Below are positions 478 to 46,620 of a stretch of DNA of 64,000 nt, piece after piece (positions within the stretch are counted from its first letter, which is position 1; each line of letters opens with the position of its first letter). Below the pieces are notes generated by a model. The model had not been told where the DNA came from. It did not search any database and worked only from the letters and a program-made list of their open reading frames with translations. Location: the IMG/VR virus record IMGVR_UViG_3300012971_000002, positions 1 to 64,000 of that record. One strand, written 5' to 3'. The position numbers and the translations under genes were made by a program. Origin of the DNA: a virus.

Positions 478-492
478 GTTTGGAGGAATCAA

Positions 493-1022: not shown

Positions 1023-1322
1023 ATGTCAGAACCGAAAGAGATCACCACGAAAGACCGGGAAGGCTTCGAGAAAGAAGCGCACAAGCAGATCGTGCGCGGC
1101 CGTCACCGGCTCATCTTGGAAATGGCCAGCAAAGGCAAGACCAAGGATGAGATCAACGGCGTGGTGATGATGATTGACTGGAAGCAAGAACAGGAGTGGG
1201 TTGCGGAAGAACTCGAGCAAACGGAGAAGTTAAAACGTGCCACGGCCGCGGCCGCGGTAGATGCGAAAACTCCCGCTCCGGTTCCGGTCCAGATCCCGAT
1301 ACCGCCTTCGCAAAGCAACTGA
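1023..1322 (+). CDS. hypothetical protein
   Basis: 99-aa ORF, purine-rich RBS upstream, Lys/Glu-rich; no family recognised. Confidence 0.55.
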   Translation: MSEPKEITTKDREGFEKEAHKQIVRGRHRLILEMASKGKTKDEINGVVMMIDWKQEQEWVAEELEQTEKLKRATAAAAVDAKTPAPVPVQIPIPPSQSN

Positions 1323-1323
1323 G

Positions 1324-1512
1324 ATGCCGTACACGCGCCAACAGGTGAAGTTCCTTTTCTCTAGCGGATCCCCGCTGTCTCCGGAACAAAAAGAAAAAAT
1401 GCACAGCGAATTGCACGCCAATCCCGCGCTTGGCCACATGAAGAAAGGCAGCGCGGAGATGAAACGTCCTTCTCGAATGGCCCATGCCTTCCAAGCAGCA
1501 CGCAGGAGATGA
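1324..1512 (+). CDS. small basic hypothetical protein (62 aa)
   Basis: Internal ATG of track ORF 1261-1512, 1 nt after stop of previous gene; C-terminus RMAHAFQAARRR resembles that of the 2360-2548 product. Confidence 0.5.
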   Translation: MPYTRQQVKFLFSSGSPLSPEQKEKMHSELHANPALGHMKKGSAEMKRPSRMAHAFQAARRR

Positions 1513-1516
1513 AGCA

Positions 1517-1681
1517 ATGATTATTTACTTTTCTTTGCTCGTGGCCATCATTGGAGTTTTGATGTACGCGCTTTGCACGAATGCCAAGTTGCAGGAGATC
1601 GGCCGGTTGCTGTTCTTCGCCGGGATCTTGGCATTCCTTCTGGGGACCGGATCTTCGTTGCAGGTATTGAAGCCGCACTGA
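1517..1681 (+). CDS. small membrane protein (54 aa, two predicted TM helices)
   Basis: ATG 4 nt after upstream stop, AGGAGA SD; hydrophobic stretches IIYFSLLVAIIGVLMYAL and LLFFAGILAFLLG. Confidence 0.6.
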   Translation: MIIYFSLLVAIIGVLMYALCTNAKLQEIGRLLFFAGILAFLLGTGSSLQVLKPH

Positions 1682-1693
1682 AAAGGGTTGGTG

Positions 1694-2128
1694 ATGGAAC
1701 GTAGAAACTTTCTGGCATCGCTCGCAAGTATCCCGCTTTGGGCAAGACCGCCGCTTCCCTCTGAACAAAAAGTGAAGCCGTACATGACTGTGCCACCGGC
1801 ACCGGCTACGAACATCACGGAGATCAATGTCGGATGTTCCGCGCTTTTCCCGAGTACCTTCCGTGCCGCTCGAGACTTCTGGGGTGAAGACTGTGAAGTG
1901 ATCGGCCATCCGGCGCAAAAGTCCGCATGGAATATAGCGCGTCAATTGATGGGGAATCCGGCATACAGCACCGAATGGAACGAAGCCCAAGACGAATACT
2001 TCATGGGCAAAGAGTTTACGGCCGATTACACCATGCCGATGGATGAGATCCACTTTCGCCGGAATGGCAAGGTTGTGGGCAAGATCCGGCAACTGGCGAT
2101 TCCAATGTCCTACATGAGCGTGCGATGA
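1694..2128 (+). CDS. hypothetical exported protein with twin-arginine-like signal
   Basis: N-terminus MERRNFLASLASIPLWA fits the Tat S/T-R-R-x-F-L pattern; ATG inside track ORF 1688-2128. Confidence 0.55.
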   Translation: MERRNFLASLASIPLWARPPLPSEQKVKPYMTVPPAPATNITEINVGCSALFPSTFRAARDFWGEDCEVIGHPAQKSAWNIARQLMGNPAYSTEWNEAQDEYFMGKEFTADYTMPMDEIHFRRNGKVVGKIRQLAIPMSYMSVR

Positions 2129-2367
2129 ATAAGCCCACCTATCCAGCCGATCACAAACCCGGAATGCGCGTACCGAAGGGTGGCTCGATGTGCGCGAACT
2201 GTCGCTACCTGAAAGACGCCGAAAAAAGAATTTGCGGCAATAGAGACTTTGTGAAGTGGAATGGTTCAGAAGTTATTCCCGCTCCGGTCAATGAATACTG
2301 TTCTGATTGGTACGAACCTAAGCATAATGTGGTGACTTCGGCACTGAAGGGAGAAAGAAATGGCTAA
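2125..2367 (+). CDS. hypothetical Cys-containing protein
   Basis: 80-aa ORF, ATGA overlap with upstream stop; CANC...C...C pattern. Confidence 0.55.
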   Translation: MNKPTYPADHKPGMRVPKGGSMCANCRYLKDAEKRICGNRDFVKWNGSEVIPAPVNEYCSDWYEPKHNVVTSALKGERNG

Positions 2368-2548
2368 CCGCTGGATGCAGGACGAAGCAGAACGCGAAAA
2401 ACACGCGGGGACCAAAGGAAGCTTTACCCGTCTTGCTCATCGTCACGGTCTTTCCGTTGGCGAAGAGATTACACGCGATGAAGACAAGCCGGGGCACGAA
2501 GGTAAAATGGCACGGATGGCGAAAGCTTTCAGATCGGCACGAAAATAA
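2360..2548 (+). CDS. small basic hypothetical protein
   Basis: 62-aa ORF overlapping upstream gene by 8 nt; KGSFTRLAHRHGLSVGEEI and C-terminal RMAKAFRSARK. Confidence 0.5.
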   Translation: MANRWMQDEAEREKHAGTKGSFTRLAHRHGLSVGEEITRDEDKPGHEGKMARMAKAFRSARK

Positions 2549-2567
2549 AACTCTGTGACGGAGGATT

Positions 2568-2840
2568 ATGTCAATGGCAATCGCGCTTACATCTAGTCCG
2601 CTGTCCATCGCCAGTATCATGCGATGGAATGGCGTAGTCACGCTCAAAGTCCTGAACCACGGCTTTACACAAGGCGTTCATGTTGGCGCTTCGCTTCGCG
2701 TCATCAATGCACCGGATCCCAGCTACAACGGAACCTTTTCCATCGCCAAAGTGGTGGACGCTGACACGATCCAATATCTGCAGCCGACACAGAACGACAT
2801 TCACACCGAACTCAGGGGTGGCGCAATTTCCGTGGGATGA
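2568..2840 (+). CDS. hypothetical protein, stand-alone copy of a beta-rich module also repeated in large virion proteins
   Basis: 90-aa ORF; motif GVHVGASLRVINAPDPSYNGTFSIAKV resembles repeats inside 13304-17911 and 37213-37899 products. Confidence 0.55.
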   Translation: MSMAIALTSSPLSIASIMRWNGVVTLKVLNHGFTQGVHVGASLRVINAPDPSYNGTFSIAKVVDADTIQYLQPTQNDIHTELRGGAISVG

Positions 2841-2877
2841 GGTTATACTCATGCCGCGGTAGGACGGAAAACGGGCA

Positions 2878-2917
2878 GGGGAAGCATCACTAGGCGCGAG
2901 TCTGGGATGGCTTCCCC
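2878..2917 (+). terminator. stem-loop between small-gene cluster and portal-like gene (terminator-like, no clear U-tract)
   Basis: GGGGAAGCATC ... GATGGCTTCCCC, about 11 bp with one bulge, 17-nt loop, followed by AATAAATT. Confidence 0.35.
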
Positions 2918-2940
2918 AATAAATTACGAAGAGGGTTTAG

Positions 2941-5532
2941 TTGGCAACCGCAGTTGCGAACTTCACCGAAGAAGAAACCAAAAAGCAAGGCGATGCCGAA
3001 ACACCGGATGAAGAAATTAAGCCCGGAGTTTTAGCTGGCGTAGATGTTTCTTTCGAACCGGATTATTGCGAAGACAGCGAAGACTATCCCCTGACATCTG
3101 AAGAAGTGGCCGCACTCAAAGAGATGTGCCGCAAAGCACAGACTCGCGACACACCGGCGCGGCTGATCGAGATCATTCAGGCGTGGGAAGCGGCGCTGTT
3201 CTACCGCGGCTATCAATTCCTCATTCCCTTGCGTGGCGGTGGCTGGAAGATCCCGAGTGAAGCGACGGGCTACGGTCCGTCTATGCAGATTGATCTCTCG
3301 CTTTTGCCCACGAACATCTACTCGTCTTACGGCCAGATGATTATCTCCGCGCTTACCCGCTCCGTGCCGAACGTCCGCTTCCAAGCGAATCAGGATTCAA
3401 GCGATGCGGCCATCACGAGCGCACAATCCGCGGACAAGTTCGTGAAGGTGATCCGGCGCAACAATGATTTGATCGTGGTCCAGACCGATGCAGCGCGTTA
3501 TCTCTGGTGTGACGGCCGCGCTCTCTATTGGTCCAGATGGGAAGTGGATGGCCAGCGCTTCGGATGGCAGGAGAAGGATCAGCCCAGCAATATCGTGCCG
3601 GAGAACGAACCGCCAACGGAAGTGGAAGAAAGTATCGTCGCGGGCGAAGAAAAGAAGGAAGTCCAAGAACAAAGCACGCCGATTGTTTCCGAAGACGAGG
3701 AAGCGCAAGACAACGTTACCGGCGAAGAAGCGGAAGAGGAACTGGAAGAAGCCACCAAGGGCCGCACGCCGAACGGGCAAGAAGTCCGCACCGCACACGG
3801 CAAACTCGAATGCAAGATGGTGCCGATGGCCGCGGCGAATCTCGCCGCTTGTGATGCGTTGCAGTTCGAACTCGAAGTGGACGAATGCCGCGCCAAGGGC
3901 ATGTTTCCGAAGAAAGCGGATGAGATCCATGGCGGGCAACAGGGCCAGAGCGAAGCCACGATTGCGCGGCTGGCTCGAGAGAACGTCAAGCTTGGAATGC
4001 AATCCACCTACGTCACCGCGGACTCTTCTTCACGCGATGTGACGATCCAGCGGACGTGGTGCCGTCCCTCTGCCTTCATGTGGGTGGACAACGAAGCCAC
4101 GCGCAATTCGCTCATCAAGAAGTTCCCCGATGGCGTCTACATCTGTTACGCCGGGGAAACCTTCATCTGGGCGCGGAACGAAAACATTGACGATTCATGG
4201 GCTGAGATCCAAGCCTACTCCGGCGACGGCCAGAACCGGAACGCGCTGGGCACTTCGATGATGCCCGCACAGAAGCGCATCAACAATTGGCTGGATCTCA
4301 TCAACGATTACTTTGTCCGCGGGATCCCCAAGATCTACATGGACAACAAAGCGTTCGATGTTCAGGCGCTCCGGCAACAGTCCAACGTTCCCGGTGACCG
4401 CGTGCCGATGAAACGCCAAGGGATCCCGGTGGAACAGCTTGTGTGGGCCGAACCGAAGGTGGAAGCACCGGCTTCGCTGTTCGAGTTCGTGAAGGAATAC
4501 ATCGGACCGCTTTGCGAATTGCTCACCGGTGGCTATCCGGCTATCTCTGGCGGCCAATCCGATACGGATACCTTCCGCGGCATGGCGCTGCAGCGGGATC
4601 AAGCATTAGGCCGGTTGGGACCAACGTGGCACAACATCCAGAACGCCGAAGCCAGAGCCACCAAGAACGAAGTGCGCTGGGGATCCAAGATGCGGAAAGG
4701 CACGATCAACGAACGGATTCCCGGTGGCGAAGTCATTCGTCTCGAAGTGAACGATCTGAAGTCCAACATTGCTTGCTATGCCGAATCGGATGAGAACTTC
4801 CCCGAGAGCTACCCGCAAAAGCAACAGCGGCTTGTGGGCTTCATGCAAGACTCTGCGAAGAATCCGATGCTGGGTGAAGTGCTCTACAATCCGGCGAATC
4901 TCGTGTTCCTGAAGTCCATGGTGGCGTTGCCGGAACTCTACATCCCGCAAGTGCTCGCATGGGAAAAGCAACTGGGCGAACTCGAGCTACTGACGAAACA
5001 GAAGCCGATCCCGAATCCGCAGATTGCCGAAGCGCAAGCCATGCTCGAGAAGTTAAAGAAGATGCCCAATGTGGATCAGACTCAACTCTTGGCGGTCCAA
5101 CAGGAAATTGACCAAATGGCCAAGACGAAGCCACTCGTTTCCTCTGTCACCGTAGATGGCCAAGTGGAAGACAACGAAACAGAAGCCATGTGTTGCTGGA
5201 AGTTTATGATGGAGCGCGAAGGCCGGAAACTAAAGCGCGTGAATCCGGAAGCCTTTGAGAACGTGCGCTTGCACTTCATGGATCACCAAGAAGCCGGACA
5301 ACAGAAAGCGGCCGCGGCTCCGGCACCTTCGAAACCGCCGTCCGAGTCCATTAATTACAAAGATGTGGCCGCAAATGATCCGGGCGCTGCAGCGCAATTG
5401 CTTGGCAAAGGTGGGATGACGCCCACCACACCAGCTTCGCCAGCGGAACCGCAATCATCGCCGGGAGTCCCATCGGCAATGCCAGCGCTTCCCGGTCCGG
5501 GGCAAGCAAGTCCCACGACACCGGCGAAATAA
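2941..5532 (+). CDS. portal-like protein (assigned by size and synteny)
   Basis: 863-aa ORF with TTG start immediately upstream of scaffold-like and capsid-like genes; acidic insert and Pro/Ala-rich C-terminus; no motif-level proof. Confidence 0.6.
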   Translation: MATAVANFTEEETKKQGDAETPDEEIKPGVLAGVDVSFEPDYCEDSEDYPLTSEEVAALKEMCRKAQTRDTPARLIEIIQAWEAALFYRGYQFLIPLRGGGWKIPSEATGYGPSMQIDLSLLPTNIYSSYGQMIISALTRSVPNVRFQANQDSSDAAITSAQSADKFVKVIRRNNDLIVVQTDAARYLWCDGRALYWSRWEVDGQRFGWQEKDQPSNIVPENEPPTEVEESIVAGEEKKEVQEQSTPIVSEDEEAQDNVTGEEAEEELEEATKGRTPNGQEVRTAHGKLECKMVPMAAANLAACDALQFELEVDECRAKGMFPKKADEIHGGQQGQSEATIARLARENVKLGMQSTYVTADSSSRDVTIQRTWCRPSAFMWVDNEATRNSLIKKFPDGVYICYAGETFIWARNENIDDSWAEIQAYSGDGQNRNALGTSMMPAQKRINNWLDLINDYFVRGIPKIYMDNKAFDVQALRQQSNVPGDRVPMKRQGIPVEQLVWAEPKVEAPASLFEFVKEYIGPLCELLTGGYPAISGGQSDTDTFRGMALQRDQALGRLGPTWHNIQNAEARATKNEVRWGSKMRKGTINERIPGGEVIRLEVNDLKSNIACYAESDENFPESYPQKQQRLVGFMQDSAKNPMLGEVLYNPANLVFLKSMVALPELYIPQVLAWEKQLGELELLTKQKPIPNPQIAEAQAMLEKLKKMPNVDQTQLLAVQQEIDQMAKTKPLVSSVTVDGQVEDNETEAMCCWKFMMEREGRKLKRVNPEAFENVRLHFMDHQEAGQQKAAAAPAPSKPPSESINYKDVAANDPGAAAQLLGKGGMTPTTPASPAEPQSSPGVPSAMPALPGPGQASPTTPAK

Positions 5533-5596
5533 AAGTTTGAAGGAATAAAATTCCTTCGAAAAGTACAAATCGGGTAACTAAATCGGGGAGGAAGTC

Positions 5597-7015
5597 ATGG
5601 ACGATCCAAATGCTATTGCTGGTGCTGGTGCGGGTGGTGGCGGCGCTGACGGTGCCGGTGATGGTGGTGCCGCTGCAGCCGTTGCGGATCCGGAAGTAGA
5701 TCCCAATGCCGGTGGTGGTGCGGCTCCGGCCGATGGCGGGGAAGCTGGCGGTGGCGACGGCGCGGCCGCGGCTGGCGGTGCGGAAGAAGAACGTTTACCG
5801 GGAGATCAAAGCACGGACGATCACCCGGAACGTGAAGAGATCTCTACCGATGGCCGCACGATTGACAAAGCCACTCGTGACGCCATTTCCAGACTCGAGA
5901 AGACGGACAAGAACCTTGCGAAGTTCGTGCGCGACACCGCTTTCCGCAATCAGGCGGTGGCCAAGGAATTTCCGGAAGCCAAGAACTTCAAGGAAGTAGT
6001 CAGCAACATCCGCACACTCAAGGCCACGCTCGAAGCCGTGGGTGGATCCGAAGGAATCGAAAGTCTGGAAACCGAAGTAGGCGACTACCGGAACGAGATC
6101 CAGCAATTCGCCAGAGGGGACCGCTCCCTGATCGAACAGCTTTACGAAGCGAATCCCGAAAATACGATGGTGGCCGCTCGCAATGCGCTTGAAGTACTGG
6201 GCGAGAAAAGCGCGAAGTTGCTCGATGAAGCCATGCTTCCCAGCGTGGTGCGCCGGTTCAATCAAGCCCAACTTCCGCAAATTCTCGCTGCAGTTATGAA
6301 GTTTTGCGAAGAAGGCAAAGGCCAAGAAGCTTGGGATCAGGCGAAACGAGTTCACGATTGGATGACCAATCTTGCAACTCAGGCCGGTGAGATCTCGAAG
6401 AATGTCAAACAAGTGGATCCGCGGGAACAAGCGCTGACGGACCGCGAAAACAAGATGAACCAACGCGAAGCCGATCACTATGACCGCACGATCAGCAACA
6501 GCGTCACCAAGCGGAATAACGATGCGCTTGGCACCGTGCTCACGGCTTCGTTCTGGAAGTCCATCGGCTACGATGGCAAAGACATGGGTGAATCCCGGCG
6601 CGACTTCACGCAAGGCGTAATGAATCGCGTGTGGGCCGCGATGAAAGCGGACAAGACGTTCCAGAAGAATGCTCACGCGGTCAAAGCCAAAGGCGATGCG
6701 GATCGTAGCGCGGAGTTCATATCGGACAAGTTCGAGGAACTTCTTCCGGATATTTTCCGGAACTACAAGAATATGCGCTTCCCCAGCCGTGGCGCGGCCA
6801 AGCCAGCCGCACCGGCCGCGAAGAATGGTGCCGCACCGGCGAACAAAGCCGCGGCTCCGGCCGCTGCAGCGGCGGTTACGCTGAAGCCGAAGCCACAGGA
6901 AATTGACTGGGACAAGACCACGGATGAGATGTTCAACATCGGCGGCAAGGTGGGCAAAGCTTACCGCAAGGACAACGGCAAGCTGGTGCAATGGAACTGG
7001 GCCGATCAGCCATAA
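5597..7015 (+). CDS. scaffolding-like protein
   Basis: 472-aa ORF between portal-like and capsid-like genes; Gly/Ala/Asp low-complexity N-terminus, helical charged middle, Ala/Pro-rich tail; GGGGAGGAAG SD. Confidence 0.55.
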   Translation: MDDPNAIAGAGAGGGGADGAGDGGAAAAVADPEVDPNAGGGAAPADGGEAGGGDGAAAAGGAEEERLPGDQSTDDHPEREEISTDGRTIDKATRDAISRLEKTDKNLAKFVRDTAFRNQAVAKEFPEAKNFKEVVSNIRTLKATLEAVGGSEGIESLETEVGDYRNEIQQFARGDRSLIEQLYEANPENTMVAARNALEVLGEKSAKLLDEAMLPSVVRRFNQAQLPQILAAVMKFCEEGKGQEAWDQAKRVHDWMTNLATQAGEISKNVKQVDPREQALTDRENKMNQREADHYDRTISNSVTKRNNDALGTVLTASFWKSIGYDGKDMGESRRDFTQGVMNRVWAAMKADKTFQKNAHAVKAKGDADRSAEFISDKFEELLPDIFRNYKNMRFPSRGAAKPAAPAAKNGAAPANKAAAPAAAAAVTLKPKPQEIDWDKTTDEMFNIGGKVGKAYRKDNGKLVQWNWADQP

Positions 7016-7022
7016 GTTTTTG

Positions 7023-7052
7023 TTGACACTTTCCGGCAAGCGGCTGTACCGT
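7023..7052 (+). promoter_or_regulatory. candidate sigma70-like promoter in 237-nt leader of capsid gene
   Basis: GTTGACA-N18-TACCGT, same geometry as the candidate promoter at 55602-55631 (GTTGACA-N18-TACAGT); weak -10. Confidence 0.25.
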
Positions 7053-7258
7053 ATCGGCATTGCTCAGAGATGTCGTGGTCACGCCCACGCTAAAAATATG
7101 AAGCCTCTCTGGCCAAACCAACACAATCGGGAAAAGCACTGAACTCGCGTGATTGACTTCACGTTGAGCGCCAACGCTGAATAGGCAGCAAAGCACAAGC
7201 TGGCAGATCTCGGGAATCTGCAGAACGTGCGCGTTGAGCCACTGCTGAGGTTGTGTCC

Positions 7259-8599
7259 ATGCCAGCGAACCCGCTCGCAGAAGCCGCTGTTGAAGCCGTA
7301 GAGCTAGAGAATTTTGCAAAGGGCATTCCGGATTACGTCTACAAGGGCCGGACTGTCTACAATCTTTTCAAAAAGGGCAGCAAGACTTATCCCACCGCCA
7401 ATATCACACAGGCCGGTGGCGTAACCCGTCCGGCATTCCGTGTGCCGATGCGGATCCAGTCCGGCGCGGCAATCTTCCAAGCCACCGGCAACGGTGACGC
7501 TCTAGGCCGTGGGACCGGTTCGCAGTGGATTGCCGGAGATCTTTCTCCGGTGGGACTCTTCGCCGGTTGCGAGATCACCTACCTTGCTCGCAAAGCCACC
7601 GAAGGGCCGAAGCGCGGACTCATCGCACTCCGGGCTGAAGAACTCAAGAACTCGTTCGAAACCTTCATGCAAGGTGTGGACGCTCAGTTCTTGACGGACG
7701 GCTCCGGCGCGGTGCTTCAAATCCCATCCACCGCGGTTATCACGACTGGCGGTTCCGGCGCTCAGACTTCGATCATCTCCGGTCTGGGCGGTCAGGCGAA
7801 CCAGTTACAGGAACAGCAAGTTGTCCAGTTCTTCGCCGCGGAAGGCGGTTCACCGCGTACCGGTGGTGTGGCAACGGCCACGGTTTCCTATGTGGACGGC
7901 GCGGCCGACATCGTGTACTTCAGCACCGCGCTCCCGAACGGCACCACGACGGGCGACTTCATTATGATTCAGGGCAGCACCGGCGCTTTGAACTCCGGCG
8001 TGCTCGGGATCTATGCGTTCCAAGTGGCATCGAACACCGGCACGATCCTGAATCTGTCGCGTTCTTCGTTCCCCGGCCAGTTGTCCACGCCGAACATCAA
8101 CAAGAACAACGCGCCGATCAACCTGACGGACGGCTACAAGGCTGAGATCTTGATCGGCCGCGGGTTGGGCCAAGAAAACAAAGCAGTGGACGAGTTCACT
8201 TGGATCTGTGGGCCGGATCAGCAACTTGCCGTTGCCCAGCTTTACACCCAAGTACTTGCCCAGTACATGCTTCCGTCCGGCGATAAGGCGCTGGATATGG
8301 CCAAGAAGAACATGTCTCCCACTTATGCCGGACGCGAATTGCACGTTGCGTATTCGGCCAAGGCGGGGCGTCTGGATGCGGTTGTACCGCCGAACTGGGG
8401 CATCGTTGAGACGGTTGAACCGTCCATCTATGACTTCGGTGATGGCGTCACCACGATGCCGATTCCGGACTTTGCCGGTCAGGGCAGCTACCTGACTTCT
8501 TCGATCTTCTTCTACAACGCCTTCTTGAACCTGTTCAATTCGAACCTGAAGGCGGGTTGCTACATCTCGAGCGCGGCTGTTCCCAGCGTCACGAGCTAG
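7259..8599 (+). CDS. major capsid-like protein (by synteny and size)
   Basis: 446 aa from ATG 7259 (GAGG 8 nt upstream; track start GTG 7253); follows scaffold-like gene, followed by hairpin. Confidence 0.6.
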   Translation: MPANPLAEAAVEAVELENFAKGIPDYVYKGRTVYNLFKKGSKTYPTANITQAGGVTRPAFRVPMRIQSGAAIFQATGNGDALGRGTGSQWIAGDLSPVGLFAGCEITYLARKATEGPKRGLIALRAEELKNSFETFMQGVDAQFLTDGSGAVLQIPSTAVITTGGSGAQTSIISGLGGQANQLQEQQVVQFFAAEGGSPRTGGVATATVSYVDGAADIVYFSTALPNGTTTGDFIMIQGSTGALNSGVLGIYAFQVASNTGTILNLSRSSFPGQLSTPNINKNNAPINLTDGYKAEILIGRGLGQENKAVDEFTWICGPDQQLAVAQLYTQVLAQYMLPSGDKALDMAKKNMSPTYAGRELHVAYSAKAGRLDAVVPPNWGIVETVEPSIYDFGDGVTTMPIPDFAGQGSYLTSSIFFYNAFLNLFNSNLKAGCYISSAAVPSVTS

Positions 8600-8623
8600 T
8601 AGCTGACAGAAGAAAAACATTCG

Positions 8624-8645
8624 GGGAGCATCGCAAGGTGCTCCC
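8624..8645 (+). terminator. stem-loop after capsid gene (attenuator/terminator-like)
   Basis: GGGAGCA-tcgcaagg-TGCTCCC 25 nt after the stop codon; no strong U-tract. Confidence 0.35.
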
Positions 8646-8672
8646 TGAAACTTCAAACAAATCGGGGAAAAT

Positions 8673-9125
8673 ATGGAAACCATCACCACTCCGGCACAGG
8701 ATACTGTTCCGGCCAGCCGTAAATTCTACGAACTCAAAGCACGCGGTAAGTGGGTACTCATCCGCATGATTGCCCAAGAGGAACGCATCTCGGAAGGCGG
8801 CATCCGGATCCGTGAAGCCCAAGCACGCACGCAACACGGTCATGTAGTGGATGTGGACACGGCCGAAGTGCGCGGTCTCGCGGTGGGCCAGATCGTGGTA
8901 TTCACGAACTTTCCGAACGCGCTCGATGATGTGGAAGAACTCACCGGCGAGCGGGATCTGTATCTGGTGCGGGAAGAAGAGATCTATGCGGCCGCGGAAG
9001 AGATCACGGATCCGCTGAAGCTTGCCGTCATCAAGGGCCGCATCGCGCTCCGTGAAGCGAAGTATGTCATCAAGGATGAAGATGAGACGATTGAACAAGC
9101 GCTCGAGAAAGCGAAGCAATCGTGA
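8673..9125 (+). CDS. GroES/Cpn10-like co-chaperonin candidate
   Basis: KWVLIRMIAQEERISEGGIRIREAQARTQHGHVVDVD...VGQIVVF...DLYLVREEEIYA follows the GroES pattern (V-x-V-K...GGI-x-L...G-x-V-x-A-V...GD-x-V-x-F...I-x-x-x-D-I-x-A) by eye. Confidence 0.5.
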   Translation: METITTPAQDTVPASRKFYELKARGKWVLIRMIAQEERISEGGIRIREAQARTQHGHVVDVDTAEVRGLAVGQIVVFTNFPNALDDVEELTGERDLYLVREEEIYAAAEEITDPLKLAVIKGRIALREAKYVIKDEDETIEQALEKAKQS

Positions 9126-9835
9126 GTGAATCGCGCCAGTGTCCCAAGGAATTTCAGGACCGCATTGACCGGATGTTCGGCAAGAACAAATTCGGTGGTC
9201 CGATCTACAAGATTGCTTGGGCGCAAAGCGAAACCCAGAAGATGGCCTTCAGTCGTTTCACGGACCGCGGCGATGTCAGCGGTTATGAACAACGGCTGAA
9301 AGGATCCAACACACCATGCTGGATGATTATGCGGTGGAAAGATCCATCGCACTACGGTTCACCGGATCTCTTCTACTCGAACACGTTCATGGACGGGATG
9401 AATCTGTACTTCATGGGTGATTACCCATGGCAGGGACGCTACGAAATTCTTTACATGATGTGCCGGAAAGAATTTGTGAACGGGAAGCTGGAAGTCAACG
9501 CGCTTCCGCTCGATCACCTGTTCATTGACAAGATCATCCCGCTGCTCATCGAATGCCAGTACATGACGCTGTTCGAACGGCAAGCCGCGGCACAGATGGA
9601 GAAGGAATATCTCCGCAAGCAAGAAGTGAACGAACTCGCGGACAGGATGATGAACGATCTGCCCGCGTGGTACGGTCCGGTTTCCTATTCGAACCAAGGC
9701 TGTAGAACGTCGCTTCTCGATACGATGATGGACAAGATCCAGAAGCGCTGGGAAAAAATGTCAGGGTACGGCCGTCCGGTCTTTGCGAAGGGTATGGCGC
9801 AAGGCAACCGGCCGTCTGTGCTTTCACGAATCTAA
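9122..9835 (+). CDS. hypothetical virion-module protein
   Basis: 237-aa ORF, GTGA overlap with upstream gene; no family recognised. Confidence 0.6.
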   Translation: MSESRQCPKEFQDRIDRMFGKNKFGGPIYKIAWAQSETQKMAFSRFTDRGDVSGYEQRLKGSNTPCWMIMRWKDPSHYGSPDLFYSNTFMDGMNLYFMGDYPWQGRYEILYMMCRKEFVNGKLEVNALPLDHLFIDKIIPLLIECQYMTLFERQAAAQMEKEYLRKQEVNELADRMMNDLPAWYGPVSYSNQGCRTSLLDTMMDKIQKRWEKMSGYGRPVFAKGMAQGNRPSVLSRI

Positions 9836-9850
9836 AATCGGGAGAACACA

Positions 9851-10789
9851 ATGCCACTTGAAGCAACACATGATCTAACGAACGATTCAGCAAATGCAGT
9901 ACGGGCATCGCAAGCGAAGATGAACGAACAGAATAGTCCCAAGGGTGCAAGGCTCGAGGCTGGCGACGATATTCCGATGCCAACCTACAAGCTTTACATC
10001 TACAACATTCTCGAACTCGAGCACGAGATCAATCAGCCACCGGCCTTCCCGCGCTTCATCATTCCGGCCAAGCCGAAAGACAAGAAGTTTTCCGTGCTCA
10101 TGTTCCCCGCTTTCATCAAAGAACGTTACGAACGGCCGGGATCCACGGAGTACTATTTCAAGCATATTGACGGCCGCAAGTATGCCGGACAATTGCTGAA
10201 TCCCGCTTCGTTCCCCGGAACGAACTGGCAAGCGCAATTGCAGAACTGGCGCTCGAACGATCAGTTCGGGAATAACTACAACTCGCTGGGATGTTTTTGG
10301 TCCCTGACTACGCCGGACGATCCGAAGCTGGACGAAGAGATCGAGAAGTTCAAAATCGTGGCACGCAAGACGCTGGAAGCTTTGGTCCGGCAAGCCGAAT
10401 TTTTCTACAACTCGAAAAAGGAAAACGAGATCACGCCATTGATGCACTTCGCGATGGATTACCTTCGCAAAACTTCGCCGTGGCACATGCGTTCGGATCT
10501 CATGGTGGATTGCCCGAATTGCGGCGAAGCGGTCAAGGAAGGTGTGGCGTATCACCGGAACAGCTTTGGCGAGCGCTGCATCATTGACGTGGCACGTTGC
10601 GCGGAGATCGGGATCTTCCCGTTTGCCGCGACATCCGCGGCCGTGCCGGTGCCGGTGGTGCCGGTTGCGCGGGAAGGCGCGGGCATGGCGTCCGGAGATC
10701 CGGAAGAAGACGAACTCGAAAACTTGGCTTCGGCCGGTGCGGCGAAAGAAGTAGCTCGCGCCACGAAGGGAGCGAAGCGCAGAAGTTAA
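9851..10789 (+). CDS. hypothetical virion-module protein
   Basis: 312-aa ORF, GGGAGAA SD; CPNCGE...C...C patch and Ala/Pro-rich acidic tail. Confidence 0.6.
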   Translation: MPLEATHDLTNDSANAVRASQAKMNEQNSPKGARLEAGDDIPMPTYKLYIYNILELEHEINQPPAFPRFIIPAKPKDKKFSVLMFPAFIKERYERPGSTEYYFKHIDGRKYAGQLLNPASFPGTNWQAQLQNWRSNDQFGNNYNSLGCFWSLTTPDDPKLDEEIEKFKIVARKTLEALVRQAEFFYNSKKENEITPLMHFAMDYLRKTSPWHMRSDLMVDCPNCGEAVKEGVAYHRNSFGERCIIDVARCAEIGIFPFAATSAAVPVPVVPVAREGAGMASGDPEEDELENLASAGAAKEVARATKGAKRRS

Positions 10790-10917
10790 CACGATCTTCG
10801 CTGGGACGGTTCCGTACCCGCGTTGCTGCCTTTACCCGCCTAGCGCGGTGACGACCCGATTTGGGTAGTCAAGGCGACCCGCAGCCGTCCCGGCGATGCA
10901 AGTTTGGAAGGGAGCGT

Positions 10918-11736
10918 ATGCCTAACACACAACAATCCGGTTTCCCTACGCTCCAATCGTGCATGGATCTCGCTCGATCCATCGTCAACGATATGTATCC
11001 CGGCACTGGTGGCACGAACGGCCGAATCCTCACGAACAGCGCACCCTTCACGATTCACTACATCAATTCCGCACAGCGCACCGTGGCACGCGAACTTCGC
11101 ATTGAAGGTGTGACGTTCCCGATCAAGGACGGCATCATCCTTCCGAATCTGACGCCGGTGTCTACACCCAGCGTTGACGTGCAAACTTTTGTGGGCTTCG
11201 AAGGTTACTTCGATGGCTACACGCTTCATCCCACACCGAAACTTCCGAGCGATGCCTTGCAAGTTTTAGTGGTCTCGGAACAGACCGCGGGATCCGGATT
11301 GGGTTACAGCGAGATGATTCAACCCGAGAATGGATTGCCTTCCACGATCCAGACACAAGTATTGGGAATGTGGGAATGGAGACAGTACCGGATTTACATG
11401 ATCGGGAGCACCGCCACGAAAAACTTGCGGATCCGCTACCAGTCCGGCGTGGTGCCATTCAATACGCCACCGGCCGATTTTGATACCACCTACCTTTCAA
11501 TTCTCGATTCCGAAGAAGCGGTAGCTTCCCAGATTGCGATGCTGTACGCCGGTGCGCGTGGCGGCGGCAACGTTGCCTTCGCCAAAGAGATGCACGAAAA
11601 AGCGATTGATGACATGTCCAACGAATGGGTGCGCCGTCAACAGCAACAGAACTTCCGGCGTCCAGCTTACGAAGGTGCCGGTTCCCAGAACGAACAAGGA
11701 ACGCCGCTCGGACCTGTGGACAACTGGGGGACATAA
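10918..11736 (+). CDS. hypothetical virion-module protein
   Basis: 272 aa from ATG 10918 (GGAAGGGAG SD); ends in TAATG overlap with tail-fibre-like gene. Confidence 0.6.
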   Translation: MPNTQQSGFPTLQSCMDLARSIVNDMYPGTGGTNGRILTNSAPFTIHYINSAQRTVARELRIEGVTFPIKDGIILPNLTPVSTPSVDVQTFVGFEGYFDGYTLHPTPKLPSDALQVLVVSEQTAGSGLGYSEMIQPENGLPSTIQTQVLGMWEWRQYRIYMIGSTATKNLRIRYQSGVVPFNTPPADFDTTYLSILDSEEAVASQIAMLYAGARGGGNVAFAKEMHEKAIDDMSNEWVRRQQQQNFRRPAYEGAGSQNEQGTPLGPVDNWGT

Positions 11737-24815: not shown

Positions 24816-24829
24816 TAGTACGGAAGTAC
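24814..24829. promoter_or_regulatory. operator-like 16-mer AATAGTACGGAAGTAC (copy 1 of 2)
   Basis: Identical 16-mer at 55571-55586; 21 of 22 nt identical with flanks; both in promoter regions. Confidence 0.45.
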
Positions 24830-26079: not shown

Positions 26080-26289
26080 TTATGCTTTCTCCTGAAGTGC
26101 TTTTTCCCATGTCTCGCGGTGCGCCCAGCGTTTCATGTACTCTTTGCCGGGAACAGCGCAACGAAGCCAAACGATGCTTTTTCCTTCTTGGATCGGCGTG
26201 GCGAAGTAGGGGACGGTGTGGCCGTTATATCCGTCCGGCAGGTTGATGATTCTGTCTTGGGGATTCTTGGCTTTTTGTTGGTGTCTCAT
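26080..26289 (-). CDS. hypothetical protein, predicted leaderless
   Basis: 69-aa ORF; ATG lies 5 nt after the -10 of the promoter cassette at 26295-26336. Confidence 0.55.
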   Translation of the reverse strand: MRHQQKAKNPQDRIINLPDGYNGHTVPYFATPIQEGKSIVWLRCAVPGKEYMKRWAHRETWEKALQEKA

Positions 26290-26294: not shown

Positions 26295-26336
26295 AGATTA
26301 CGCCTTAACCGGTACGTTGTCAACCTATTTGTTTAA
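26295..26336 (-). promoter_or_regulatory. promoter cassette P4: TTAAACA-N6-TTGACA-N17-TAATCT-N5-ATG
   Basis: Read on minus strand; TAA stop of upstream gene is embedded in TTAAACA; one of four aligned copies. Confidence 0.6.
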
Positions 26337-26701
26337 CTTTCTTTTGGGGTGAAGTCGCTCCGGACGGTGGCCAGTTGGGATCCCAGATCCAAGATGTAGA
26401 TCTCCGCGACACCGTTGGAATAGTGTCCACGGATGCCGTAGAAGCCCCATGGCGCGAGATCCGGGCTGGTGGCTACATGGGAGACTTTGGGGATCTTGTA
26501 GTCCCTGATAGCGGTCTCTATGGCCATTGCTTCAGCAATCCCCATCTCTAGGCCATGGTTGGGGACTTCTTGCCATTCCAAGTTCTCGATGGCTTTCACT
26601 ACCATGTCGCGGGATGTGATGACTCCCGGCCATTCGGCCGGATCTACCGGCTTGCCGATGAACTCTTCGCCGGTCTTGGTCCAGTTCTGTTGGGTGGCCA
26701 T
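26333..26701 (-). CDS. hypothetical protein
   Basis: 122 aa from internal ATG (MATQQNW...) that forms a TAATG overlap with the upstream gene; longer track ORF start rejected. Confidence 0.55.
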   Translation of the reverse strand: MATQQNWTKTGEEFIGKPVDPAEWPGVITSRDMVVKAIENLEWQEVPNHGLEMGIAEAMAIETAIRDYKIPKVSHVATSPDLAPWGFYGIRGHYSNGVAEIYILDLGSQLATVRSDFTPKES

Positions 26702-26907
26702 TACCGCACCGCCTTCACGAAGTTGCGTAGCGTGGCCACACCGGCTGTCCCATACTGTCCACCCATGTTCAATACCCAACCAGCCGGACCGCGCATGATG
26801 GCTCTGCCAGTCTTCTCTTTCCACTCCTGTCCATTCCGGCCGAAGCCATTGGGAACTAGGATCGTTACTTTGTCACCGTGCTTGATCTGATCGAATTGGA
26901 TCTGCAT
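26701..26907 (-). CDS. hypothetical protein
   Basis: 68 aa from ATG 26907 preceded by AGGAAGGGGAAAAGA. Confidence 0.5.
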   Translation of the reverse strand: MQIQFDQIKHGDKVTILVPNGFGRNGQEWKEKTGRAIMRGPAGWVLNMGGQYGTAGVATLRNFVKAVR

Positions 26908-27061
26908 TCTTTTCCCCTTCCTCATTGAATTTGATTCCGTGCTTTTTCAAGATCTCCCGCGCTTCGGCTTTGGTCATGCCACCCATGATTCGAGCGCCAA
27001 TGTCGGAAAGCTTCAGCGTGTCTTTAGCGATGCGGATCTGGTGTTTAGCGAAGATGTCCAT
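26873..27061 (-). CDS. hypothetical protein
   Basis: 62-aa ORF with GGAGAAAAC RBS. Confidence 0.5.
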   Translation of the reverse strand: MDIFAKHQIRIAKDTLKLSDIGARIMGGMTKAEAREILKKHGIKFNEEGEKNADPIRSDQAR

Positions 27062-27069
27062 GTTTTCTC

Positions 27070-27348
27070 CTACAAGAGCCGATAGTGTGCTGCTACTTCA
27101 CCGCGTTCGTCGCGGATGATGACTTCCGTGTATCCGTTCCCAGCCGGTGAGATCCCTTCGATCAAGCCACCTTTGATCCAGTCCATTCGGGAGACTTTGC
27201 CATCCGGCTTTAGCATGTCGAAACCATAGGATCTGTGCTCTTTGACCGTGCGCGGTTGCGGTTCCTTCATTGGTACATAGCATCCGATGAGTTCCAGTTG
27301 ACGGCCGATGTAGAAGAGAGTTTTCAGTTCGTTTCGTGTGAGTTCCAT
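27070..27348 (-). CDS. hypothetical protein
   Basis: 92 aa from ATG 27348 preceded by AGGAGAAAAACA. Confidence 0.5.
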   Translation of the reverse strand: MELTRNELKTLFYIGRQLELIGCYVPMKEPQPRTVKEHRSYGFDMLKPDGKVSRMDWIKGGLIEGISPAGNGYTEVIIRDERGEVAAHYRLL

Positions 27349-27358
27349 TGTTTTTCTC

Positions 27359-27796
27359 CTAGTCAATTCGGCTTTGCGCGTAGATTTTGATTCCCATGAT
27401 CTCGTGGACTACTTTGGCGAAACCGTGCGCCCATGCTTCGTTGCGCGTCATGGACTGTGTTCTCAGTGGGGACCAGATGTGGACACCGCCACCGTACCAG
27501 CTTCCCTTGCGTCCACCGCTTCGGCCGCGGCCGGTTTTTACCAGCCACTTGGCGAAGGCACAGTTGCCGGGATGAACTTCCACCCAGCCGAACCCGCAAA
27601 CGCCGTCCGCGACGTACCATTGTTTTTCGATGGGGGAATTATCATCGGCCATGTTCTGGTGCTGGGAGACAACCATCGGAACACAGACCGCTTCGCGTGC
27701 TGCCTTATTGCCCGCTTCCATGGCAGCGTTGAAGATGTCTAAATAGAGCGCTTCTTTCTTTTCTTGCTTGGTTTGGTATTTCGGTTGGTGTGTCAT
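27359..27796 (-). CDS. hypothetical protein, predicted leaderless
   Basis: 145 aa; conserved-looking core DGVCGFGWVEVHPGNCAFAKWL...QSMTRNEAWAHGFAKV; ATG 5 nt after the -10 of cassette P3. Confidence 0.6.
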   Translation of the reverse strand: MTHQPKYQTKQEKKEALYLDIFNAAMEAGNKAAREAVCVPMVVSQHQNMADDNSPIEKQWYVADGVCGFGWVEVHPGNCAFAKWLVKTGRGRSGGRKGSWYGGGVHIWSPLRTQSMTRNEAWAHGFAKVVHEIMGIKIYAQSRID

Positions 27797-27801
27797 GTTC
27801 T

Positions 27802-27842
27802 AGTTTACATGAAACCAGAACGTTGTCAACCCCTATGTTTAA
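27802..27842 (-). promoter_or_regulatory. promoter cassette P3: TTAAACA-N6-TTGACA-N16-TAAACT-N5-ATG
   Basis: Minus strand; TAA stop of upstream gene embedded in TTAAACA. Confidence 0.6.
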
Positions 27843-28099
27843 TAGCGGGTTGCCTTCGTATAATCTTCGCTTGGCACCAGCCACGCTTCGGATCCGTCAT
27901 CATGGCGCACGGAAAGCGCCGGAACCTTGAGGGATCCTTCCACCATGCCGGTCTGGAATACCGTTCCCAGTTGGCCGGTCTTGCGGTGGCGCACGCGGTC
28001 ATTCACTTTGATCTTCTCCGAGAGCGTGCGCTTGAAGTCATTCTCGAGACGGGCTTGATTCCCGCCGAAGATCTTCTGAAAGAACATAGATGCGGTCAT
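27839..28099 (-). CDS. hypothetical protein
   Basis: 86 aa from ATG forming an ATGA overlap with the NlpC/P60-like gene stop. Confidence 0.5.
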   Translation of the reverse strand: MTASMFFQKIFGGNQARLENDFKRTLSEKIKVNDRVRHRKTGQLGTVFQTGMVEGSLKVPALSVRHDDGSEAWLVPSEDYTKATRY

Positions 28100-28626
28100 T
28101 CGACACCTTCCTTGAACCTGCGAATTGTGACCGGACCGGTGAACCATGGATCCGTTTCCGGTTTGTCTGAAAGTTGAAACTTGGCGATATTGCCGCGCCG
28201 GTAGTCCGCATCAATCCAGCGGCCGGATCCGAGATAGACCGCCACATGCTGGCCATTGAAGTTGGCCACATCTCCCGGCTTTAACAGGTATTCTTTGAGA
28301 TCCGCACGCTGGGCAAAGACGCGGATCACATTCGTCTTGGTCTTCCAGTAGACGAAAGTGAGTTCGTCGCCGTGGGCATTGGCGATAAACTTGGCGCAAT
28401 CCAATTCTTCGGTGTTGGAACGGTAGCCTTCCAGCCACTCGAGACGGGTGAGATAGTTCGAAGGATATGGAAGGTAAGCGCGGTTGTCCCAGAGCCGGAA
28501 CAGCAAGACGGCCGCGGCCAAAAGGATCACAACGGCGAGCGCCGCGACGATCCGGCGCTTGGCATACTGGGAGACAAAATATATTAGAGATCCTAATGAG
28601 ATTCCTAATAGGATTGCCGTTTGCAT
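28096..28626 (-). CDS. membrane-anchored NlpC/P60-like cysteine peptidase
   Basis: LDCAKFIANAH (Cys), KPGDVANFNGQHVAVYLGSGRWIDA (His) fit C40 layout; two N-terminal hydrophobic helices; start 28626 has AAAGGGGAA SD, alternative ATG at 28665. Confidence 0.55.
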   Translation of the reverse strand: MQTAILLGISLGSLIYFVSQYAKRRIVAALAVVILLAAAVLLFRLWDNRAYLPYPSNYLTRLEWLEGYRSNTEELDCAKFIANAHGDELTFVYWKTKTNVIRVFAQRADLKEYLLKPGDVANFNGQHVAVYLGSGRWIDADYRRGNIAKFQLSDKPETDPWFTGPVTIRRFKEGVE

Positions 28627-28747
28627 GTTTCCCCTTTCAGGTATAAAGTATGCCAACTTCGCCATGCAAGGTTAATAGTACCTTTGCTCTAAAAGTGCTT
28701 AAAAAGTAGGTACGTTCGATTCGCCGGACTTTCGCCAAGGGAGAACC

Positions 28748-42599: not shown

Positions 42600-44330
42600 T
42601 CACAGTTCCAGAAACCAAGCGGCAATTTTGACGTGGCCTTGCCGCGGGTATGTCACAAGTCCTTTGGTCTTCAGAGCGCCAAGCGGATTCTTGAACGCGC
42701 TGCTAGTTTCGGAATAGCCCGAAGCCAGCGCCAGTTCTCTCCGTGCCAATTCCACACCACCGGTCAACGGTTCAAGGATCTTCCATTCTGGACCGCTGCA
42801 AATATGCTGGATCCGGCGCTCGATCTCTGTGCGGTCTACTGCGTTGACGTGTGGCGCTACCCGTTCGCCTTCATCCGTCAGATTGACATGGCCGGGATGC
42901 GGATAACCTACGAAGCCTTTGGTGTTGAGCGCTCCCAGCGGATTCTTGAATGCGCTACTCGTGGGCGAATAGGTAGACCATGCCGCAACCATGTCACGCG
43001 GCGGCGCTTCCTGTCCGATCTGCCGGAGTTCGGCCAGAGCCTTGAGAATCCGCGCTTCCGGTCCGGAGAGATCTCCGTTTACTTCCGTTGTGTGGACATG
43101 GCCAAAAGGCGTCTCTTTTACTTTGTGAGTGAAGGTACGCACCGATGATTCGATGGATTGCTTTATCACCTTTGGATCTATCTCGATCTTCGGGTAATCG
43201 GCCAGTGGTTCTTCCACATACTTCGTGGCCATCCGGATGATGGAAGTGAGCATATTCCGCGTTTCTACCAGTTGACGCCTGAAATGCTGGGCGCTAACGC
43301 GCCACGGCTCGATGTGCTGCGATAAAGCGGCTTGGATGGTGGAAGATGCCACGGTCAAACGTTCGGCCTTCTGGGGCACCGGCTGGGGCTTTCTGGCCAG
43401 TTCTAGGCGCAACCGGCTGATCTCGGCCTTCAATTTGACCGGATCGTTGGCTTCGGCTTCCTTCACAACGTGCTCGAGTTTGGTCTTCAGATCGGCCAGA
43501 TCCACACCGGCCCAGCCGTGCAACTTGGCGGTATCGGCCGGGGACTGTGGCCGGAAGGAATCGTAGGTCTTGAACATTGGGAAGTGGATCTGCTTTGGCC
43601 CAAAGTCAATCTCCGGGGACCAAGCCCACGCATCACCGCGCTTCATTTGAGCAAGCGAGTTCAGTACTTCCTTCCCCTTCTCGGAATCGCCACAGCCTTC
43701 GATCCAATCGCGCACAGCATCTCTGTCCCACTTAGTAGTGACGCGCATGGCGATAAGCGTTTCACATGAAGTCAAAAAATCATTGTGAACCTTCGAAGCG
43801 CGTTGACTGGCACCGATCAGCGTGATCCCGATCCCGCGGGCTTCCGCGGCCAGCTTATTGGACCAATGGAGCATCATCCCGGCTTTGTTATCCAGAACCT
43901 TACCCTTCGGCGCGAAGTTGTGGACTTCATCGATCACGAGATAGATCTTTCCCTGAAGCACGCGGAACAAGTTCGAAGCGAAGTCGATCCAAAAGGTAGT
44001 GCGCTCTCCCGGCATGAAGTCACGCATTTGAAGGATTGCGGATCGATTGCCGGTGCCTAGCAATTCGGCCATCACTTTGCCGGAGAGATGCGAAAGCGGA
44101 AGATCTTGGTGCTGGCCACCGAAGACCGGAACAGGGTAACCGGCTCGCTTGCCGTCTTTGTCCAGCTTCAGTCCCCACCAGTCCGCTTTCGGCGTGATTA
44201 CGATCACGCGCTTGTCGTGGTCCAAGAGATATTCCACAAGATCCCGCACGGCCGAAGACTTGCCCGCGCCGGTCTTGCCCAGTGTGATGATATGTTGCTC
44301 GAGCGCTTCAACTGGGATCGGTAGACTCAT
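42600..44330 (-). CDS. HerA/FtsK-superfamily P-loop ATPase with two tandem C-terminal winged-helix repeats
   Basis: 576 aa; Walker A LGKTGAGKSS, Walker B YLVIDEVHNF, GASQRAS; repeats SGPE-x-(R/K)IL...S-x-YS-x-TSSAFKNPLGAL-x-TKG-x-V-x-YP...GHV at aa 422-485 and 512-570. Confidence 0.7.
   Translation of the reverse strand: MSLPIPVEALEQHIITLGKTGAGKSSAVRDLVEYLLDHDKRVIVITPKADWWGLKLDKDGKRAGYPVPVFGGQHQDLPLSHLSGKVMAELLGTGNRSAILQMRDFMPGERTTFWIDFASNLFRVLQGKIYLVIDEVHNFAPKGKVLDNKAGMMLHWSNKLAAEARGIGITLIGASQRASKVHNDFLTSCETLIAMRVTTKWDRDAVRDWIEGCGDSEKGKEVLNSLAQMKRGDAWAWSPEIDFGPKQIHFPMFKTYDSFRPQSPADTAKLHGWAGVDLADLKTKLEHVVKEAEANDPVKLKAEISRLRLELARKPQPVPQKAERLTVASSTIQAALSQHIEPWRVSAQHFRRQLVETRNMLTSIIRMATKYVEEPLADYPKIEIDPKVIKQSIESSVRTFTHKVKETPFGHVHTTEVNGDLSGPEARILKALAELRQIGQEAPPRDMVAAWSTYSPTSSAFKNPLGALNTKGFVGYPHPGHVNLTDEGERVAPHVNAVDRTEIERRIQHICSGPEWKILEPLTGGVELARRELALASGYSETSSAFKNPLGALKTKGLVTYPRQGHVKIAAWFLEL
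42621..43067 (-). repeat. tandem duplication encoding the two winged-helix-like modules
   Basis: Protein-level repeat with 16 consecutive near-identical residues (TSSAFKNPLGAL.TKG); coordinates derived from aa positions. Confidence 0.65.
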
Positions 44331-46570: not shown

Positions 46571-46620
46571 CAGCGGGGAATGCAGCGGGGACTATACCCT
46601 TGTTCGCTATGCAAGGTCAA
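46571..46620 (-). promoter_or_regulatory. candidate promoter TTGACC-N18-TATAGT followed by two 9-nt direct repeats
   Basis: Minus strand; TGA stop of upstream gene lies inside TTGACC; TCCCCGCTG-CAT-TCCCCGCTG starts right after the -10. Confidence 0.45.

Follow-up and report, generated by a model that had tools for sequence, protein, structure and literature searches.

What is built into the short gaps between certain genes of an uncultured tailed phage, where a stop codon, a promoter and a start codon appear to be compressed into little more than forty nucleotides (nt)? The DNA analysed here (the window) is a 64 kb stretch, with a GC content of ~53%, of a ~67-kb phage-like contig (IMG/VR record IMGVR_UViG_3300012971_000002, positions 1 to 64,000), and a preliminary description of it singled out two minus-strand junctions in a leftward operon, here called cassettes c1 and c2, as promoters fused directly to leaderless genes. 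We find that these junctions belong to a set of six sites, c1 to c6, at each of which a 16 base pair (bp) dyad-symmetric sequence lies on a promoter, and we consider it probable, from the arrangement of the sequence elements, that the junctions are early promoters of the host sigma70/sigmaA type that carry an operator-like site, several of them giving what are predicted to be leaderless mRNAs.

The letters of c1 and c2 read exactly as they had been described (Table 1), and both additional copies that had been mentioned exist (c3, 54261-54243, and c4, 55572-55554). The TAA within TTAAACA was thought to be the stop codon of the upstream gene; it is so at c2 (TAA 27841-27839, which closes open reading frame (ORF) 27839-28147), at c1 (TAA 26335-26333, which closes gene F, ORF 26333-26701 in the frame 26333..26824) and also at c3 (TAA 54260-54258, which closes a 344/378-aa ORF), but not at c4, because no ORF lies upstream of it. 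The gaps from stop to start are 42 nt at c2 and 43 nt at c1, as had been stated. The exact 5-nt distance between the -10 hexamer and the start codon likewise holds for c1 and c2, and for c3 with its GTG, but fails at c4, which is leadered and has a Shine-Dalgarno (SD) sequence. This c4 promoter is the head of the right-arm leftward operon and is arranged back to back with a divergent promoter, c6, whose -10 lies 7 nt from its ATG; c4 and c5 are outside the 5-8 nt range. No intrinsic terminators were found at the cassette junctions, and with no terminator between the genes read-through RNA must exist.

When the hexamers are judged as sigma70/sigmaA elements, a perfect TTGACA is present at c1-c4 and at c6, where a spacer of 16-18 nt leads to a -10 hexamer of the TANNNT type (CATAAT at c4), and c5 has only TCAACA. 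The hexamer TTGACA is not by itself enriched in the window (31 copies, ~26 expected), so it is the composite that carries the signal. Four exact copies of TTAAACA-N6-TTGACA occur, each on the minus strand, and when up to two mismatches are allowed there are six matches, a number that none of 100 shuffled sequences reached (mean 0.96). Similarly, TTGACA-N15-19-TANNNT-N3-9-ATG is matched three times where 0.08 matches are expected, and a relaxed scan (-35 with at most one mismatch, N16-18, TANNNT, N4-8 to ATG or GTG, and an ORF of at least 40 aa) gave exactly four matches, namely c1, c2, c3 and c6, while the shuffled sequences gave 0.8 on average and never more than 3.

Table 1. Positions of the promoter sites, their component elements, and the genes and gene blocks of the window that are discussed in the text.
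Feature	Positions	Strand	TTAAACA	Dyad	-35	-10	Start codon	Description
c1	26336-26287	-	26336-26330	26335-26320	26323-26318	26300-26295	ATG 26289-26287	TTAAACA-AATAGG-TTGACA-N17-TAATCT-ACAAC-ATG
c2	27842-27794	-	27842-27836	27841-27826	27829-27824	27807-27802	ATG 27796-27794	TTAAACA-TAGGGG-TTGACA-N16-TAAACT-AGAAC-ATG
c3	54261-54212	-	54261-54255	54260-54245	54248-54243	54225-54220	GTG 54214-54212	TTGACA-N17-TATTCT-TTCTT-GTG
c3 spacer AGGAG	54230-54226	-						11 nt 5' of GTG
c4	55572-55505	-	55572-55566	55571-55556	55559-55554	55536-55531	ATG 55507	TTAAACA, TTGACA-N17-CATAAT, 23 nt with AGGAG-N7, ATG; leadered
c5	24829-24787	-		24814-24799				GTACTTCCGTAC (24829-24818), TA, dyad TCAACA-CAGG-TGTTTA
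c5 promoter	24814-24787	-					ATG 24760	Weaker, TCAACA-N16-GATAAT; leadered gene with AGGAG
c6	55590-55641	+		55590-55605	55602-55607	55626-55631	ATG 55639	TTGACA-N18-TACAGT-CCGGACC-ATG; predicted leaderless type
GTAC-N4-GTAC element	55575-55586	.						Centre of divergent c4/c6 region; sole other exact copy at c5
Gene G	26080-26289	-						69 aa; first gene behind c1
Gene B	27359-27796	-						145 aa, widespread phage family; first gene behind c2
c3 gene	54032-54214	-					GTG	60 aa
Cro/YdaS-like helix-turn-helix (HTH) protein	55639-55812	+						57 aa; behind c6, adjoins the site cluster
alpha-CTD-like protein	56906-57373	+						155 aa; N-terminal 70 residues match the RNA polymerase alpha-subunit C-terminal domain (alpha-CTD)
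Plus-strand block	1-24 kb	+						Capsid-like, tape-measure-like and tail-like ORFs
Short leftward (left) operon	24.1-28.7 kb	-
Plus-strand block	28.7-40 kb	+						Glycosyltransferase and GDSL lipase genes
Long leftward operon	40-55.5 kb	-						RecT, exonuclease-like ORF, DUF5131, HerA-like ATPase
Rightward block	from 55.6 kb	+

The preliminary description took TTAAACA for an upstream element; it is indeed conserved, but it is better described as the outer of the two half-sites in a 16-bp dyad, T[AC]AAC[AC]-N4-[GT]GTT[GT]A, of which the window holds exactly six copies (0.04 expected), all of them at promoters (c1-c4, c5 and c6). The half-sites are 6 bp long with centres 10 bp apart, and the inner half overlaps the TTGA of the -35 hexamer at five of the promoters; at c5 the dyad extends over the -35 and the spacer. 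In c1-c4 two blocks are invariant, TTAAACA (7/7) and GTTGACAA (8/8), whereas the spacer and the 5 nt that separate the blocks differ from copy to copy. The site at c6 is a perfect palindrome, TCAACC-GGCA-GGTTGA, that does not contain TTAAACA, and at c5 the half-sites are swapped relative to c1-c4 and TTGACA is absent. Since the dyad is kept at both of these places, symmetry, and not A-richness, is the common feature. From the size of the half-sites, their spacing and their position over a perfect -35, we infer that the dyad has the look of a site for a dimeric HTH repressor.

A second symmetric element accompanies the dyad in the divergent c4/c6 region, where three symmetric sites are centred at 55563.5, 55580.5 and 55597.5, that is, 17 bp apart. 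The whole of 55554-55607 is symmetric around GTACGGAAGTAC, with a 16-bp dyad 17 bp to each side. The pairing of this GTAC element with a dyad is repeated at c5 (24818-24829), and c4 and c5 both carry an exact GTACTTCCGTAC-TA just upstream. In a related locus, L124, there are four copies of GTAC-N4-GTAC-YA-TTTAC(A/G), at 8747, 9484, 15033 and 19178.

Could TTAAACA instead be an upstream promoter (UP)-like or extended -35 element, contacted by a host or phage alpha-CTD, that boosts the promoter and looks like part of a dyad only by chance, TAAACA being close to the complement of TGTTGA? The element sits at about -48 to -42, which is the position of the proximal UP subsite in Escherichia coli rrnB P1, and in relatives whose promoters share the design an A/T-rich zone lies 5-10 nt ahead of the -35, with a G-rich stretch after it, as in AAAGGTG-TTGACA. 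The phage moreover encodes an alpha-CTD-like domain in its 155-aa protein (PF03118, E=3.3e-18; Bacillus subtilis alpha-CTD 3ihq_B, E=7.9e-13), and this region contains SVRTYNCLK and NFGRKSV, which we take to match the E. coli alpha-CTD DNA-contact residues R265, N268, C269, G296, K298 and S299. The C-terminal half of the protein has no match, and among deposited phage records the protein has few matches (21 records), mostly unannotated. On the other hand, c6 has no A-rich element and a perfect dyad, c5 keeps its dyad with the halves exchanged, and four copies that match exactly (7/7) vary less than degenerate UP elements do; also, upstream of the stretch of about -48 to -40 that TTAAACA plus W-A covers, no A/T-rich distal subsite is seen. 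The UP-like explanation is the chief alternative for TTAAACA, of added interest because of the phage's own alpha-CTD-like protein, and we regard it as somewhat doubtful.

If the dyad is an operator, its best candidate binder is the 57-aa Cro/YdaS-like protein encoded behind c6. Among the ORFs scanned no other protein is clearly of the HTH type, a Pfam search of 20 further early ORFs having added none, and neither a CI-like repressor nor an integrase was seen among the ORFs scanned. The 155-aa alpha-CTD-like protein might, more speculatively, be an alternative reader of TTAAACA. Two smaller observations concern the neighbourhood of these genes. At 56284-56592 on the minus strand, amid plus-strand genes, is a 102-aa ORF that has a GGAG SD and a weak HTH-like stretch at its C-terminus, and a 139-aa ORF on the plus strand, which matches ASCH weakly, overlaps it; either of the two may be the real one. 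An ATG-TAA start-stop pair is present 3 nt 3' of the c4 -10 (55521-55530, minus strand), before the ATG of the 72-aa gene.

Whether the genes behind c1, c2, c3 and c6 are leaderless depends in part on whether their start codons are correctly assigned. Forty-four detectable proteins make up the family of gene B, whose conserved block (KQEKKEALY...) sets in at codon 10; no other in-frame start comes before codon 26, so the ATG at 27796 is the start. Its closest homologue, P0002 (68% identity), begins MTH, and another, P0007 (63%), begins MRHQQ, as does gene G of the window. The c3 gene has two homologues of 59-60 aa that align over 98% and 85% of its length with 52-54% identity, and its ORF has no other in-frame start codon. 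These homologue N-termini, as judged by comparison of the predicted proteins, confirm the start codons at c1, c2 and c3, and the use of downstream starts, which had been named as an outcome that would speak against leaderless genes, is not what they indicate.

The lack of an SD sequence, claimed for these junctions at the outset, is borne out at c1 and c2, and c6 has none either. At c3 there is an AGGAG, but it lies within the promoter spacer, upstream of the -10; it is therefore absent from RNA that begins at c3 and usable only on read-through transcripts from c4. The accompanying statement that most other genes have strong GGAG-type SDs is no more than roughly correct: an SD core of at least 4 nt precedes 53 of 109 crude ORF calls and, within the left operon, ~7 of the remaining 10 genes. 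At the 5' ends of the putative leaderless mRNAs, the opening 45 nt of the messages from c1 and c2 have an A+C fraction of 0.78-0.82 and are predicted to be unstructured; with a minimum free energy of 0 kcal/mol they share a top-three place among 91 ORFs (median over the ORFs, -6.0). All four of these starts also have a pyrimidine at -1 followed by a purine at +1.

It could still be that the promoters are real and the genes are not leaderless, if transcription starts a few nt away, for instance on the G of the ATG or upstream, or if most of the protein is made by SD-independent initiation on read-through polycistronic RNA. The 5-nt discriminator is one nt below the 6-nt mode seen in relatives (below), read-through RNA is expected from the absence of terminators, and c3 retains its AGGAG for such RNA; in L124 only 4 nt separate the -10 from the first ATG, and farther downstream there is another ATG that has a GGGA. 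E. coli RNA polymerase prefers to start at a purine that follows a pyrimidine, and the -1/+1 pairs C/A at c1, c2 and c6 and T/G at c3 suit a start at the first base of the start codon. The missing SD and the exceptionally unstructured A/C-rich coding ends at c1 and c2 also argue against this alternative, as does the recurrence of the same geometry 83 times in related loci with an SD-like motif in only 6 of them, and we judge it unlikely.

The comparison with relatives was made in loci L120-L242 (857,581 nt), which were fetched via homologues of window proteins. The suggestion that a motif model be run on related phages was fruitful here: these loci contain 83 unique leaderless-type promoter-start sites, whose -10-to-start distances cluster sharply around a mode of 6 nt (41 sites, where shuffled sequences gave 1-3 per bin), with a pyrimidine at -1 in 60 of the 83 and an SD-like motif within 20 nt upstream in 6. 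In L198 (Ga0315289_10009512, 135-11635) there are 16 units of the form TTGACA-N16/17-TAnnnT-N5/6-ATG within 12.4 kb, the promoter often lying inside the 3' end of the preceding gene, and L194, L200, L152, L153 and L169 contain similarly dense arrays. In such loci nearly every small early gene seems, from its sequence, to have its own promoter and no SD. Together the 83 sites and the L198 arrays make the window design a mild and regular instance of one that is common in loosely related uncultured phages, and the 42-43 nt junction, which had been called unusually economical, is not unusual: relatives are more compact, and SigA-like promoters with predicted leaderless mRNAs occur in Cluster O mycobacteriophages (PMC4351075).

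Closer relatives preserve the geometry in part. On the contig that encodes P0002 (JGI sample 3300047160, 13 kb) the gene table gives an identical 42-nt gap and the same gene order as in the window; this contig is not among the 80 loci kept from the metagenome scan, and a scan of IMG/VR did not find a relative. The locus that carries P0007 (L237, 2.96 kb) is ~80% identical to the window in nucleotide sequence and has TTGACA-N17-TAATCT-ACAAC-ATGAGACACCAACAAAA upstream of its gene-B homologue. The ACAAC is followed there by ATGAGACACCAAC, and the block from -10 to +16 is identical to that of c1 of the window. There is a 21-nt indel upstream of the -35 and a 6-nt indel downstream of codon 6, and the -35, -10 and ATG distances are kept save for one spacer nucleotide (N16 to N17). 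Distant homologues of genes B and G and of the c3 gene usually have a consensus promoter followed by a leader and an SD, and the leaderless state is thus lineage-specific. We rejected L124 as clean support for a leaderless gene B, given its 4-nt distance and its second ATG (above).

Promoters paired with symmetric sites of other sequence occur in several of these loci. L207 (IMGVR_UViG_3300037264_001118) has four cassettes of the form TTGACT-TTATGCCATAA...(-10)-N5/6-ATG, at 2874, 3630, 4234 and 5915, in which the near-palindrome TTATGCCATAA adjoins the -35; this is an independent case of a promoter, a dyad and a leaderless-type start. In L240 (SRR29078101_96654) three promoters at ~2470, 4590 and 5255 contain GCTTGACA, all are leadered and have an SD, and those at ~4590 and 5255 have the palindrome GTACCTGTCAGGTA in the spacer/-10 region. 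Upstream of the c3-gene homologue in L242 (~140-170), TTGTGAGCGCTCACA, a symmetric palindrome resembling the lac operator, is located between the -35 and -10.

Searches of IMG/VR with the window motif itself gave little. TTAAACA-N5-GTTGACAA returned single chance matches and one unrelated AT-rich phage with two copies. The same motif plus CG returned 32 matches, mostly near-identical copies of a few sequences on lower-GC contigs, and none of the 32 is followed within 45 nt by a -10 hexamer or by a start codon. The scan for TAANCTANAACATGANACACCA had 0 matches.

Taking the alpha-CTD-like protein together with these arrays, one can imagine that TTAAACA is a private upstream element and that the phage protein is a free-standing UP-element reader, or a decoy, that redirects host RNA polymerase to leaderless early promoters, the phage being one of a large uncultured group whose early genes would nearly all be leaderless promoter-gene units of their own; this idea we hold to be quite improbable. 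Most improbable of all would be that the shared sequence is only a remnant of recent duplication or gene conversion of one cassette and TTAAACA has no function, for although c1-c4 form one 34-nt repeat family (71-79% identity, parts of the spacer included), c4 and c5 have a common 36-nt repeat, and the unrelated genes G and B (P0007, L237) both start MRHQQ, conservation is block-wise, with two invariant blocks around variable sequence instead of uniform decay, and the dyad is also present at c6, outside the repeat family.

The reading we prefer is thus that of host-type promoters with an operator-like dyad, which sit inside, or directly against, the ends of the preceding genes in two leftward non-structural operons. 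The TAA within TTAAACA would be used as a stop wherever a gene runs up to the site. At c1, c2, c3 and c6 the -10 is so near the start codon that RNA polymerase would begin at the first base of the ATG or GTG, and ribosomes would load on the resulting leaderless mRNAs by their 5' AUG or GUG; A/C-rich, structure-free first codons fit such loading. Read-through RNA from upstream promoters would carry the leaderless-type genes without an SD, c3 excepted. A dimeric phage regulator bound to the dyad would occlude sigma region 4, and one regulator, most plausibly the 57-aa protein made from c6, could in this way shut off all six promoters together.

Several points weigh against this preferred reading. 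Five nt after the -10 places the A of the ATG at position 6, which is at the short edge of the E. coli RNA polymerase range, and a start at the G of the ATG (T at -1, G at +1, position 8), which would destroy the start codon, is conceivable. The dyad is imperfect at c1 and c2 (GGTTGA), its inner half is confounded with the -35 itself, and c5, whose hexamers match at 9 of 12 positions, is a weak promoter. The similarity among c1-c4 extends into the spacer, and recent paralogy could therefore explain some of the resemblance. L237 does not have TTAAACA; a 21-nt hairpin and T-run stand in its place, so the dyad is not conserved there, and a dyad search of L120-L242 gave one match only, in L138.

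Other promoters in the window are built differently. That at 46591-46620 (minus strand; TTGACC-N18-TATAGT) has a -35 that directly adjoins the TAA stop of the upstream gene (CTAATTGACC), and it is leadered (~40 nt, with AGGAG) and has neither TTAAACA nor a dyad. The head of the left operon (28640-28700, minus strand) reads GGTAC-TA-TTAACC-N17-CATACT, followed by a leader with AAAGGGG and an ATG at 28627, and resembles a degenerate copy of the c4/c5 upstream architecture.

Against 50,697 phage records, megablast with 24-30 kb found nothing similar in DNA, and tblastn with the capsid-like ORF and gene B gave zero matches; the proteins of the window, looked up by exact match, had no entry in public assemblies. 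No tRNAs and no Rfam families were detected in the window. Gene-B homologues are spread over metagenome-assembled genomes and genomes from many phyla, and the best matches of the DUF5131 protein are actinophages at ~43% identity, which database bias may explain. Window proteins are listed on contigs of 67,105 and 67,087 nt, which suggests two near-identical assemblies of the phage. The HerA-like ATPase ORF contains two 90-nt direct repeats (42628-42717 and 42883-42972, 72% identity, 255 nt apart), suggestive of an internal duplication.

If confirmed, the cassettes would be compact and well-defined promoter plus leaderless-start modules of an uncultured phage lineage, and they would hint that its host translates 5'-AUG and 5'-GUG mRNAs efficiently; they would also define a concrete regulon, made up of one small Cro-like protein and six dyad sites. 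In phages of this kind, start codons could be mis-called by annotation pipelines that insist on an SD. The window is of value, too, because it points to related metagenomic phages in which such cassettes form dense arrays.

Among known systems, the Cluster O mycobacteriophages (Corndog and its relatives) have 8-9 strongly predicted sigma70/SigA-type promoters along their leftward operons, including a divergent pair and a third promoter that is predicted to be leaderless (PMC4351075). Both they and the window combine SigA-like promoters and predicted leaderless starts with repeated dyad-symmetric sites, and the leaderless reading is a prediction in both; the 17-bp Cluster O dyads (>30 copies), however, are mostly off promoters (PMC4351075), whereas all six sites here overlap promoters, and those phages have Mycobacterium hosts and high GC, with no sequence relationship found between them and the window. 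Classic leaderless cases in E. coli are lambda, P2 and Tn1721 (PMC4633059). The c4/c6 region is like lambda PRM-cI and OR-OL in its divergent promoters, in the several dyads over promoter elements, in the small Cro-like HTH gene that adjoins them and in having a regulator gene on a leaderless mRNA (in lambda, PMC4633059; predicted here for the c6 gene). It differs from lambda in that dyad promoters are also scattered 1.3-31 kb away inside operons, in the sequence and spacing of the putative operators (three sites 17 bp apart, one of another type), and in the absence of a CI-like repressor or integrase from the ORFs scanned.

The UP element of E. coli rrnB P1 is comparable as an A-rich element directly upstream of a consensus -35, at the proximal subsite, but the element here is 7 nt long, exactly conserved, part of a dyad and without a distal A/T tract, and the classical system does not include an alpha-CTD paralogue encoded by a phage, such as the one here. 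Cluster A stoperators often touch stop or start codons. Those of the mycobacteriophages L5 and D29 are likewise repeated short repressor sites in tight operon junctions, one of them over an early-promoter -35 (PMC9283540, PMC6550527), but they are asymmetric 13-bp sequences that are oriented with transcription, number in the dozens, block elongation and are mostly promoterless (PMC9283540). The sites described here are symmetric, six in number and each on a full promoter, and because they are symmetric and on promoters we rejected a stoperator interpretation. The design itself, in which sigma70-type phage promoters, leaderless mRNAs and operators over the -35 are combined, is already known, and the window is a clean example of it.

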